From Escherichia phage JoYop: a stretch of DNA of 64,000 nucleotides. Below, piece after piece: positions 2,343-7,227 of this stretch. Made by a program: the position numbers and the translations under genes. The notes beneath the pieces are model-generated. The model was not told where the DNA came from. It saw nothing but the letters and a program-made list of their open reading frames with translations, and searched no databases. Each line of letters starts with the position of its first letter. The stretch's first letter is position 1. Location: sequence record OR769032.1; one strand, written 5' to 3'.

Positions 2343-4322
2343 ATGACTTTATTATCTCCGGGCATTGAGCTCAAAGAAACTACGGTTCAAAGCACCGTGG
2401 TTAATAACTCTACTGGTACAGCAGCTTTGGCCGGTAAATTCCAGTGGGGTCCTGCTTTTCAAATTAAACAGGTTACAAACGAAGTAGATTTAGTTAATAC
2501 TTTTGGTCAACCTACGGCTGAAACAGCTGACTACTTTATGTCTGCGATGAATTTCTTGCAGTACGGAAATGACTTACGAGTTGTTCGTGCTGTCGATAGA
2601 GATACCGCTAAAAACTCATCTCCGATTGCTGGTAATATTGAATACACGATTTCTACCCCAGGTAGTAACTATGCAGTTGGAGATAAAATCAGTGTCAAGT
2701 ATGTTTCAGAAGATGTTGAAACAGAAGGTAAAATCACCGAAGTAGATGCTGATGGAAAAATCAAGAAAATTAGTATTCCTACTGCAAAAATTATCGCTAA
2801 AGCGAAAGAAGTCGGTGAATACCCGGAATTAGGTTCTAACTGGACCGCTGAAGTTTCTTCATCTTCCTCTGGTTTAGCTGCAGTAATAACTCTTGGAAAA
2901 ATTATTACTGATTCTGGTATTTTATTAGCTGAAATTGAAAATGCTGAAGCTGCTATAACAGCTGTTGATTTTCAGGAAAATCTTAAAAAATATGGAATTC
3001 CGGGAGTAGTAGCTCTTTATCCAGGCGAATTAGGCGATAAAATTGAAATTGAAATCGTATCTAAAGCTGACTACGTGAAAGGCGCTTCTGCATTACTCCC
3101 AATTTATCCAGGTGGTGGTACTCGTGCATCTACTGCCAAGGCAGTGTTTGGATATGGACCGCAGACTGACTCACAATACGCTATTATAGTTCGTCGAAAT
3201 GATGCTATTGTTCAAAGCATTGTTCTTTCAACTAAGCGCGGTGAAAAAGATATTTACGATAGTAACATCTATATCGATGACTTTTTCGCAAAAGGTGGTT
3301 CAGAATATATTTTTGCAACTGCACAAAACTGGCCAGAAGGATTCTCTGGAATTTTAACTCTGTCTGGTGGGTTATCATCAAATGCTGAAGTAACAGCAGG
3401 AGATTTGATGGAAGCTTGGGACTTCTTTGCTGACCGTGAATCTGTTGACGTCCAGTTGTTTATTGCGGGTTCTTGTGCCGGCGAATCTTTAGAAACAGCA
3501 TCTACTGTCCAAAAACACGTTGTTTCAATTGGGGATGCTCGCCAGGATTGCTTAGTATTGTGCTCACCACCGCGCGAAACTGTAGTTGGAATTCCTGTAA
3601 CTCGCGCTGTTGATAACTTAGTCAATTGGAGAACCGCAACAGGTTCATACACTGATAATAACTTTAATATCAGTTCAACCTACGCAGCAATTGATGGTAA
3701 CTATAAGTATCAGTATGACAAATATAATGATGTGAATCGTTGGGTTCCATTAGCAGCTGATATTGCTGGTTTATGCGCAAGAACTGATAACGTTTCTCAT
3801 ACTTGGATGTCTCCAGCTGGTTATAATCGTGGCCAAATTTTGAACGTTATTAAACTGGCTATTGAAACTCGCCAAGCTCAGCGCGACCGTTTATACCAAG
3901 AAGCTATTAACCCGGTAACTGGCACAGGTGGCGATGGTTACGTATTGTATGGTGATAAAACAGCTACTTCTGTTCCTTCTCCGTTTGATCGTATTAACGT
4001 TCGTCGTCTGTTTAATATGTTGAAAACTAATATCGGACGTAGTTCAAAATATCGTTTGTTCGAATTAAACAACGCGTTTACTCGTTCTTCATTCCGTACA
4101 GAAACTGCTCAGTACCTGCAAGGAATTAAAGCTCTTGGCGGAATTTATGAATATCGTGTAGTTTGCGATACAACAAATAACACTCCGTCAGTAATTGATA
4201 GAAATGAGTTTGTTGCAACATTCTACATCCAACCGGCTCGTAGTATAAATTATATCCAACTTAATTTCGTCGCAACTGCTACTGGTGCAGATTTCGATGA
4301 GTTGACTGGTCTTGCAGGTTAA
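2343..4322 (+). CDS. 18: Tail sheath protein gp18 (659 aa)
   Basis: 659 aa equals T4 gp18; synteny 17-18-19. Confidence 0.92.
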   Translation: MTLLSPGIELKETTVQSTVVNNSTGTAALAGKFQWGPAFQIKQVTNEVDLVNTFGQPTAETADYFMSAMNFLQYGNDLRVVRAVDRDTAKNSSPIAGNIEYTISTPGSNYAVGDKISVKYVSEDVETEGKITEVDADGKIKKISIPTAKIIAKAKEVGEYPELGSNWTAEVSSSSSGLAAVITLGKIITDSGILLAEIENAEAAITAVDFQENLKKYGIPGVVALYPGELGDKIEIEIVSKADYVKGASALLPIYPGGGTRASTAKAVFGYGPQTDSQYAIIVRRNDAIVQSIVLSTKRGEKDIYDSNIYIDDFFAKGGSEYIFATAQNWPEGFSGILTLSGGLSSNAEVTAGDLMEAWDFFADRESVDVQLFIAGSCAGESLETASTVQKHVVSIGDARQDCLVLCSPPRETVVGIPVTRAVDNLVNWRTATGSYTDNNFNISSTYAAIDGNYKYQYDKYNDVNRWVPLAADIAGLCARTDNVSHTWMSPAGYNRGQILNVIKLAIETRQAQRDRLYQEAINPVTGTGGDGYVLYGDKTATSVPSPFDRINVRRLFNMLKTNIGRSSKYRLFELNNAFTRSSFRTETAQYLQGIKALGGIYEYRVVCDTTNNTPSVIDRNEFVATFYIQPARSINYIQLNFVATATGADFDELTGLAG

Positions 4323-4334
4323 TTGATTGATTAT

Positions 4335-4348
4335 GGGGCTTCGGCCCC
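4335..4348 (+). terminator. GC hairpin ggggcttcggcccc immediately after gene 18
   Basis: 5-bp GC stem with ttcg loop 13 nt after the gp18 stop; typical T4 inter-cistronic hairpin. Confidence 0.5.
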
Positions 4349-4413
4349 TATTATCGAGGAAACAAGTGATTATTTCTAAGTTTGTTACAATAAAACCAAG
4401 AAATCATTCAAAA

Positions 4414-4971
4414 ATGTGGTCGACAATTCTGGGATATAAAGTATCATATCATGATACAATATCTGTTCCAATAGAATTAATGCCAAAGAATAGTAATAAA
4501 ATAGTTGACGCTAAATGCGATTTGTGCGGTGTTAAATTTAGTAGAAGCATTCAGCTTTTAAATAGAACACCCACCCACGCATGTAGAAAATGTAGCATTA
4601 AACAAGTTGCTATTAAAAATTCGGAAGTTCAATCTGGAATAAGCAGACCATGGCAAAGAGGCGATAAACATCCTCGATGGACTGGTAAAAGAAAAGAGTT
4701 TGCATTATATGCTAGTAGAGTTCATTCTATAACTAAGTCAGCTAAAATAAGAAAAATTTGGTCAAAATGGCCGAATGCTGATAAAATAGGAGTGTGCGGC
4801 GTAGAAGGTGCTTATCAACTTGATCATAAAGTATCTATCAAATATGGATTTGATAATTTAATTCCTCCGGAAATTATAGCAAGCGTAAAAAATTTAGAAA
4901 TAATCACTTGGGAATCCAACCGAGAAAAGTCAAAAAGAAATAGCGTAGATCTTTGGGATTTACTAGAATGA
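4414..4971 (+). CDS. HNH-family endonuclease, probable free-standing homing endonuclease (about 185 aa from first ATG after the hairpin)
   Basis: ORF track gives 4327..4971 but that start is TTG inside the hairpin; protein has CxxC...CxxC (CDLCGV...CRKCS) and HNH-like motif LDHKVSIKYG...NLEIITWESNREK; AT-rich; no gene sits here in T4. Confidence 0.6.
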   Translation: MWSTILGYKVSYHDTISVPIELMPKNSNKIVDAKCDLCGVKFSRSIQLLNRTPTHACRKCSIKQVAIKNSEVQSGISRPWQRGDKHPRWTGKRKEFALYASRVHSITKSAKIRKIWSKWPNADKIGVCGVEGAYQLDHKVSIKYGFDNLIPPEIIASVKNLEIITWESNREKSKRNSVDLWDLLE

Positions 4972-4978
4972 TTCTAAA

Positions 4979-4996
4979 GGCCTGTTTCGGCAGGCC
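4979..4996 (+). terminator. Hairpin ggcctgtttcggcaggcc after the HNH ORF
   Basis: 6-bp stem, 6-nt loop, 8 nt after the ORF stop. Confidence 0.45.
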
Positions 4997-4997
4997 A

Positions 4998-5005
4998 TAT
5001 AAATA
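4998..5005 (+). promoter_or_regulatory. Late promoter box TATAAATA (distal, gene 19)
   Basis: Exact TATAAATA directly after the hairpin. Confidence 0.5.
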
Positions 5006-5056
5006 CACTATATCCTTAATTCTTTAATTCTATATGCCCTAGGTTAAACATAGGGA

Positions 5057-5064
5057 TATAAATA
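5057..5064 (+). promoter_or_regulatory. Late promoter box TATAAATA (proximal, gene 19)
   Basis: Exact TATAAATA 15 bp upstream of the gene 19 ATG. Confidence 0.6.
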
Positions 5065-5078
5065 CTACAGAGGCTAAT

Positions 5079-5570
5079 ATGTTTGTAGATGATGTAACAC
5101 GAGCGTTTGAATCTGGTGATTTTGCGCGACCTAACTTATTCCAAGTAGAGATTTCTTATCTTGGCCAAAATTTTACGTTCCAATGTAAAGCTACTGCTTT
5201 ACCAGCTGGTATTGTAGAAAAAATTCCAGTCGGATTTATGAACCGTAAAATTAATGTGGCAGGCGATCGTACATTCGATGACTGGACTGTTACAGTAATG
5301 AATGATGAAGCTCATGATGCTCGTCAGAAGTTCGTTGATTGGCAAAGCATTGCTGCTGGACAAGGAAACGAAATTACTGGTGGAAAACCTGCAGAGTATA
5401 AAAAGAGCGCTATTGTTCGCCAATATGCTCGTGACGCTAAAACAGTAACAAAAGAAATTGAAATTAAAGGCTTGTGGCCTACTAACGTGGGTGAACTTCA
5501 ATTAGATTGGGATTCAAATAACGAAATCCAAACATTTGAAGTAACTCTTGCTCTCGATTATTGGGAATAA
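5079..5570 (+). CDS. 19: Tail tube protein gp19 (163 aa)
   Basis: 163 aa equals T4 gp19; follows sheath gene. Confidence 0.9.
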   Translation: MFVDDVTRAFESGDFARPNLFQVEISYLGQNFTFQCKATALPAGIVEKIPVGFMNRKINVAGDRTFDDWTVTVMNDEAHDARQKFVDWQSIAAGQGNEITGGKPAEYKKSAIVRQYARDAKTVTKEIEIKGLWPTNVGELQLDWDSNNEIQTFEVTLALDYWE

Positions 5571-5575
5571 AATGA

Positions 5576-7227
<1,652 letters not shown>

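Follow-up and report, generated by a model that had tools for sequence, protein, structure and literature searches.

Between tail sheath and tail tube in Escherichia phage JoYop: a candidate free-standing homing endonuclease gene related to T6 ORF19.1

What is the additional gene that separates the tail sheath gene (18) from the tail tube gene (19) in Escherichia phage JoYop, and how did it come to lie there? The question was addressed in a window of 64,000 nucleotides (nt) of this phage (sequence record OR769032.1), the whole stretch of DNA that was analysed, to which all positions refer; the features described lie on its plus strand. The locus belongs to the late-gene region of a Tequatrovirus (T4/T6-like), for which the list of open reading frames (ORFs) gives the order 16, 17, 18, extra ORF, 19, 20 onward. 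Comparative sequence analysis and structure prediction point to a probable answer, namely that genes 18 and 19 are separated by a homing endonuclease gene of the free-standing kind, belonging to the T6 ORF19.1 family. The initial annotation, made from the sequence alone, had proposed this class of gene. Its proposal is supported by an extra gene between two conserved essential genes that is sporadic, exchanged between phages and built from a zinc finger and a nuclease-like domain, while the profile test that it had set for the HNH assignment came out negative and its argument from a structural punctuation of the insert's own was half wrong.

The additional gene at the 18-19 junction

In T4 the gap between genes 18 and 19 measures 116 base pairs (bp) and holds no gene, as the initial annotation had it. 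Alignment with T4 and T6 places the inserted segment at 4324..4970, with 647 extra bases relative to T4; the insert replaces T4's ACGGTGC and lies directly behind the gene 18 stop codon and directly ahead of ATTCTAAAGGCC. Empty Tequatrovirus sites were base-identical in all nine that were examined (sequence TAATACGGTGCATTCTAAAGG) and free of scars. The ORF19.1-type coding sequence occupies 4366..4971 and encodes 201 amino acids, with a GTG start and a TGA stop. The longest frame in the ORF list runs from TTG 4327 to 4971; the true start is most likely GTG 4366, since a Shine-Dalgarno sequence, GAGG (4356..4359), lies 6 nt ahead of it and the homologues start with 'MIISK' at exactly that residue. 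A T6 database record of 1994 had already described the ORF as 'likely begin by GTG'. The ORF is AT-rich, as first annotated, if modestly so, with a guanine plus cytosine content of 32.8% against 39.8% in gene 18, 38.6% in gene 19 and 36.2% in the whole window. The 5-bp sequence TGATT is found at both ends of the insert, at 4324-4332 (two tandem copies, left) and at 4969-4973, and the left-end repeat has one GATT unit fewer in T6; this recurrence is probably due to chance.

The ratio of nonsynonymous to synonymous substitutions (dN/dS) is 0.02-0.06 among T6-type copies of the ORF, which indicates that it is under strong purifying selection. Together with a match to PHROG 5104 ('unknown function'; E=1.6e-81) and the 1702 representative clusters retrieved at E<1e-10 with a profile of 33 relatives covering the whole two-domain protein, this ratio identifies the ORF as a genuine gene and no chance reading frame. 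It corresponds to ORF19.1 of T6, deposited in 1994 and mostly annotated as 'hypothetical', and to gp19.1 of VR7. Both records describe the same gene at the same position, the window protein being 98.5-99% identical in amino acids to that of T6 and 60% to that of VR7, and both state no function ('ORF19.1', 'hypothetical protein'). At the nucleotide level 15 of 603 bases differ from the T6 ORF (dS ~0.10); the window copy stands about 2.5% of bases away from every database copy, mostly through synonymous changes, and the best database phage match to the 18-19 region of the window (3800-5600) reaches 97.1%. Petrov et al. 2010 credits T6 with one 'other HNH' gene, to which no name is given there.

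Of 499 Tequatrovirus-like records, about 117 (~23%) have the start of the insert. The comparison of the junction across T-even genomes that the initial annotation had suggested thus showed the ORF to be missing from T4, T2 and ~77% of close relatives, and sister phages with an empty gap have 60-215 nt at this place. Wherever the context of an allele is known (15 of 15), the gene lies directly 3' of the sheath gene, and this applies across the T4 superfamily: the alleles comprise those of T6 and the window, RB9, VR7, an Acinetobacter phage, Sinorhizobium phage phiM12, Bp7, Aeromonas phage AS-zj, Serratia phage CHI14, Klebsiella phage Roth19, Shewanella phage Thanatos-2 and five metagenomic phages. 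In one of the metagenomic alleles a NUMOD3-like N-terminus stands in place of the zinc finger, and in phiM12 the gene downstream of the ORF is not the tube gene.

Relationships among the ORF alleles do not follow those of the neighbouring sheath protein, as judged by pairwise identities and not by formal reconciliation. RB9 gp18 is 98-99% identical to gp18 of T6 and of the window, while the RB9 ORF is only 50% identical, with its nearest alleles belonging to phages of Klebsiella (64%) and of Shewanella (62%). VR7 and locus L022 share 93% identity in gp18 and 35% in the ORF, and the VR7 ORF is nearest to the T6 type (60%) though VR7 gp18 is only 72% identical. RB9 and the window are about 90% identical over the hairpin, ribosome-binding site and first codons (4317-4380) and again over the nuclease domain (4745-4971), whereas the region of the N-terminal domain is unalignable, suggesting that RB9 carries a mosaic allele whose N-terminal (DNA-binding) domain was swapped in place. 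There is good comparative support for a gene that moves horizontally between genera and keeps its site. Two features expected of free-standing homing genes are seen at this locus: a place in an intergenic gap between conserved genes, with presence or absence in close relatives and clean boundaries, and discordant relationships at a constant site.

Domain architecture and relation to known nucleases

The protein appears to consist of two modules. The N-terminal domain (residues ~1-95), a putative DNA-binding module, contains a CxxC...CxxC zinc finger (C51, C54, C73 and C76; 4516..4593), whose four cysteines are invariant or nearly so across 33 full-length family members. The C-terminal domain (residues 105-201; 4678..4968) is predicted to hold a beta-beta-alpha His-Me (HNH-like) core and includes the motif 'YQLDH...NLEIITWESNREK'. 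The candidate active-site residues are D153-H154 (4822-4827), N176 (4891-4893) and N185 (4918-4920); these and K188 are invariant in the 33 full-length relatives and in 16 distant proteins that have the C-terminal domain. The AlphaFold2 models were confident, with a predicted local distance difference test score of 89.8 over the full length and 91.4 over residues 105-201. In the models, strand 150-154 ends in D153-H154, N176 precedes strand 177-181, and helix 182-190 carries N185. Among the 30 best domain matches of the predicted structure, about 14 were HNH or His-Me nucleases. Both the beta-beta-alpha metal-finger fold, in the predicted structure, and the conserved Asp-His / Asn / Asn residues of the HNH / His-Me group are therefore present, and it is likely that the C-terminal domain is a divergent His-Me finger of H-N-N type that current profile libraries do not model. 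The assignment was made because of the predicted structure and the invariant residues only.

Comparison of the C-terminal domain by hhalign with a PF01844 profile of HK97 gp74 type, built from relatives of HK97 gp74, gave a single alignment that sets YQLDH against VVDH and NL against NW in the expected register, but at a probability of only 1.2% (P=0.046), which is not significant; against T4 MobE alone the probability was 0.2%. PHROGs returned no HNH call for the protein, and weak matches to 'homing endonuclease' and 'HNH' PHROGs landed on the zinc-finger region.

Relatives join the same C-terminal domain to helix-turn-helix (HTH) repeats, to NUMOD3-like repeats or to DUF7487, and such swappable DNA-binding modules are the pattern typical of homing endonucleases. 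The relative with HTH repeats before this domain sits elsewhere, after baseplate genes. The distant relative with Pfam DUF7487 (P0047; L028-L031:4001-4867) lies among small unknown genes on a phage-like contig of ~190 kb, and the contigs that carry it differ by several genes immediately downstream.

Among characterized systems, the Mob class of T4 (MobA-E, with MobE between nrdA and nrdB) resembles ORF19.1 in several respects: these are small free-standing genes, intergenic and in the orientation of their neighbours, sporadic in T-even phages, with an HNH-type nuclease plus a zinc finger and an RNA hairpin near the translation start. The order of domains is reversed, the zinc finger of ORF19.1 being N-terminal and its nuclease C-terminal, whereas Mob proteins have an N-terminal HNH followed by a zinc finger at the C-terminus. 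Moreover, MobE matches Pfam PF01844 while the ORF protein matches no HNH model, and the ORF motif ends in Asn (H-N-N) with no CxxC pairs in its nuclease core. On account of the domain order, and of the PF01844 match made by MobE only, ORF19.1 was not placed in the Mob class. I-HmuI and I-HmuII are H-N-N variants of the HNH group whose core lacks structural zinc; both are nickases of modular build that combine a nuclease with a DNA-binding part. They differ from ORF19.1 in being intron-encoded (SPO1-type) and in having the nuclease at the N-terminus, with the NUMOD/HTH modules C-terminal to it, and the PDB searches gave no sequence match between them and the ORF protein. The GVE2 HNH (5h0o) and the Gme HNH nicking endonuclease (4h9d) are only 8-17% identical to it in sequence; they are single-domain proteins with classical zinc-binding CxxC pairs, and the GVE2 enzyme is packaging-associated. 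SegF and SegG of T4 share the proposed mechanism, a cut in a neighbouring conserved gene followed by co-conversion of flanking markers. It is established (Belle 2002 and Liu 2003, cited in PMC2993671) that they cut the ORF-less relative at a distance of tens to hundreds of bp from where the insertion lies, and that carriers and targets differ by clustered substitutions. These are GIY-YIG enzymes for which cleavage and homing have been shown experimentally, while for ORF19.1 we infer both.

A divergent patch in gene 18 and the case for homing

The 3' end of gene 18 encodes VIDRNEFVA..PARSINYI(T/Q)LNFVAT, a C-terminal motif that is kept superfamily-wide and in all 27 loci compared. Within it, the codons for R-S-I-N-Y-I-Q-L-N-F-V (4239..4271) form a hyper-divergent patch, the part of gene 18 that differs most both between the window and T4 and between VR7 and locus L021. 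The 40-nt window from 4239 contains 14 differences from T4; over 3.8 kb the average is 2.2 per 40 nt, and the next highest count outside the patch is 8. Almost all changes are synonymous, with one T/Q replacement, and the codons concerned, RSINYI(T/Q)LNFV, fall in the stretch of gp18 that is best conserved throughout the superfamily. In the second genus, two neighbouring 60-nt windows at the same spot differ at 18 and 16 positions between VR7 (with ORF) and L021 (without), while the next-best 60-nt window has 9 and the overall divergence is 5.4%. VR7 and L022, which carry very different ORF alleles, have the patch in common. Codon optimality was ruled out as the cause of the patch, since AAC and AAT, like TAC and TAT, occur in gene 18 with about the same frequency.

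Each Tequatrovirus ORF allele accompanies its own patch haplotype. The T4-type haplotype (ATT AAC TAC ATT ACC TTA AAC) was never seen with the ORF and occurs in T4, L013, L015 and L016, and about two-thirds of the non-carriers in an evenly spaced Tequatrovirus sample have this majority haplotype. The T6-type (ATA AAT TAT ATC CAA CTT AAT) goes with the T6 allele and is found without the ORF in IME537, L014 and L020; the RB9-type (ATA AAT TAT ATT ACT TTG AAT) goes with the RB9 allele and is found without the ORF in T2 and HY01. The patch is thus a candidate for an endonuclease target or immunity site, or for a co-conversion tract. The pattern is as expected of an immunity or co-conversion patch beside a homing gene, with resistant empty alleles left over, and falls short of proof.

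The observations can be joined in a working mechanism. Low-level late expression would arise by read-through of gene 18 late transcripts beyond a hairpin at 4335-4348, with translation from the GTG start. In a mixed infection the N-terminal Cys4 zinc-finger domain, which presumably reads DNA sequence, would recognise the 3' sequence of gene 18 or the empty junction of an ORF-less relative. The C-terminal His-Me finger, its putative site made up of D153/H154 where the first strand ends, N176 ahead of the second strand and N185 in the helix that follows, would then nick or cut the empty-site genome within or close to the conserved 3' end of gene 18; the codons for SINYITLNF (4239-4271) are the leading candidate cleavage site. 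Recombination-repair of T4 type would copy the ORF, and often adjacent gene 18 bases as well, from the carrier into the empty site, and the patch, with its dense and mostly synonymous substitutions, would protect the carrier genomes.

Several observations weigh against this explanation. A profile search had been set by the initial annotation as the test that could refute the HNH assignment, and no curated HNH model matched. The CxxC pairs and the LDH motif that the annotation described are present, but Pfam gave no HNH match for the ORF (one of the 33 relatives matches HNH_4 at E=0.078), NCBIfam gave none, and searches of PDB sequences, by the single protein as well as by two profiles, brought up nothing but zinc fingers or chance matches such as the adeno-associated virus capsid; Foldseek against the PDB found nothing significant. 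The literature searched contained no experimental or functional paper on ORF19.1/gp19.1 or on the 18/19 junction. With regard to the patch, the non-T4-type ORF-less phages, about a third of the sample, were carrier-like in all that were examined (T2, HY01, IME537, L014 and L020), the ORF-carrying CHI14 has the 'susceptible' AAC TAC codons, and a co-imported recombination tract would look identical to an immunity patch.

A rather unlikely alternative is that the T4 superfamily has long harboured this accessory gene at 18/19, passing it on vertically and losing it repeatedly, and that the gene serves the phage; it could for example encode a site-specific nickase that aids recombination, late transcription or competition with co-infecting phages. 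The strict linkage to the sheath gene could also be read in this way, as every allele has the same position across very distant phages, and the strong purifying selection fits a useful gene as well. Long residence, however, is at odds with ORF relationships that clash strongly with those of gp18, including alleles 50% identical in phages with 98-99% identical gp18; nor would it lead one to expect one and the same sequence, without deletion scars, at every empty Tequatrovirus site examined, or that only ~23% of close relatives carry the ORF. In a further alternative the insert is a passenger, brought in by ordinary homologous or stem-loop-mediated recombination through the highly conserved 3' end of gene 18 and the intergenic hairpins, with no involvement of the protein; the C-terminal domain might then be inactive or a non-nuclease fold, and the protein a DNA-binding regulator. 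The shuffling of cassettes at conserved stem-loops has been documented in T4-type phages (PMC2839356), the insert is flanked by hairpins in all genera, the sequence searches found no HNH signal, and the patch could merely mark the left crossover of imported DNA. We nonetheless consider such passive import unlikely: a live active site is indicated by residues D-H, N, N and K, which do not vary and lie in a predicted beta-beta-alpha core, the domain is fused to interchangeable DNA-binding modules, as homing nucleases typically are, and the hairpin sequences differ between genera and therefore offer no shared homology.

A role in packaging, as for the HNH proteins HK97 gp74 or GVE2 HNH that assist the large terminase (here gene 17), is highly improbable. 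The ORF lies ~2 kb downstream of gene 17, but gene 18 separates the two, so that it is not adjacent to the terminase gene; T4, T2 and ~77% of close relatives package normally without it, T4 gp17 is annotated with a nuclease of its own, and hhalign against the gp74 family was not significant. It is conceivable, if quite doubtful, that the gene is not purely selfish. In this view a lineage of His-Me nucleases, kept at the 3' end of the sheath gene from coliphages to phages of Sinorhizobium, Aeromonas and Shewanella and exchanging its DNA-binding module in place, would make a site-specific nick in the late structural-gene cluster to the benefit of the carrier. Such a nick could be an entry point for recombination-dependent replication, a loading site of the sliding clamp for late transcription, or a means of attack on co-infecting relatives. 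Whichever account applies, the C-terminal domain would represent a large HNH-like family for which no curated profile exists.

Read as a homing endonuclease gene, ORF19.1 is a probable addition to the free-standing class; the ORF was already known, and its function is proposed here from sequence comparison and modelling. Its unusual features are the reversed domain order, the nuclease domain that lacks a curated profile and the strict linkage to the sheath gene across the superfamily. T-even phages are the classic homing endonuclease system, and yet this gene has been 'hypothetical' in the databases since 1994. If active, it would add a reversed-order nuclease with an HNH-like domain overlooked by Pfam and NCBIfam, and homing endonuclease genes would be undercounted in phage genomes. 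One site in very distant phages, a swapped DNA-binding domain and several 33-bp patch haplotypes would make a compact system for nuclease-target co-evolution, and the annotation proposed is testable for hundreds of phage genomes, therapeutic Tequatroviruses included.

Flanking signals and neighbouring genes

The ORF list places the left flank, gene 18 (tail sheath; 97% amino acid identity with T4 gp18), at 2343..4322 and the right flank, gene 19 (tail tube; 100% identity with T4 gp19), at 5079..5570. The initial annotation described hairpins at 4335-4348 and 4979-4996 and TATAAATA boxes at 4998 and 5057, and all four were located there. Their attribution to the insert requires revision: the hairpin at 4335-4348 is specific to the insert, but the 3' hairpin and both boxes are ancestral. 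The hairpin at 4979..4996 (GGCCTG-TTTCGG-CAGGCC; from sequence and folding) and both T4 late-promoter boxes TATAAATA (4998-5005 and 5057-5064) are identical in the ORF-less T4, T2, HY01 and five other ORF-less Tequatroviruses. Since they are base-identical in T4, they were interpreted as native signals, the hairpin being the terminal hairpin of gene 18, outside the insert, and the boxes serving gene 19; an insert that brought its own 3' hairpin and promoter is ruled out.

The insert-specific hairpin GGGGC-UUCG-GCCCC (GGGGCTTCGGCCCC; 4335..4348; from sequence and folding) lies just past the gene 18 stop, and a stable hairpin directly after this stop was present in all 12 ORF-carrying loci examined. 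Its probable role is to end or stabilise the mRNA of gene 18 and to restrict read-through into the ORF. A predicted extended stem (4327-4331/4353-4357) partly covers the Shine-Dalgarno sequence at 4356-4359. Of the two hairpins, only the one at 4979-4996 folds clearly better than shuffled sequences (z = -2.9), and the terminator scan found no intrinsic (T-run) terminator in 4100-5200. No TATAAATA box is present between gene 18 and the ORF in the window allele, while in several other genera a TATAAATA late promoter lies directly upstream of the ORF homologue. Known T4 homing endonuclease genes use middle or late promoters and not early ones (PMC2988022).

A sequence one base from the T4 late-promoter box, TATAAATT, was noticed at 4243-4250, within the gene 18 patch and ~115 nt upstream of the ORF start. 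It occurs in carriers and in some non-carriers (L014, L020 and IME537), and T4 has CATTAACT at that spot; since ORF-less phages have it too, it is not claimed as a promoter of the ORF.

The gene 19/20 junction shows a second presence/absence polymorphism. In Bp7 (L009:3769-4350) it holds an extra ORF annotated as 'HNH endonuclease', for which Pfam gives a weak SegE GIY-YIG match only, and in two metagenomic phages (L039/L040:4616-5182) a NUMOD3-like ORF lies between the tube and portal genes, being absent from the near-identical contig L038. The large terminase of Thanatos-2 (L032:1-1980) has been called as two coding sequences, the first of which also matches a Tn7 TnsA-like N-terminal endonuclease domain; this may be another nuclease insertion, in gene 17. 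The portal gene 20 is annotated as two adjacent coding sequences in Ptacy1496 (L003:3354-4800) and Bp7 (L009:4408-5630), which could stem from a frameshift, from an error in sequencing or from a genuine split. Finally, 18-19 DNA of Tequatrovirus type was found in PV654520.1 ('Pseudomonas phage vB_PSGBLB0006'), OR584013.1 ('Pseudomonas phage PsgM02F') and MG010123.1 ('Staphylococcus phage SAJK-IND'), three records that are probably mislabelled or contaminated.

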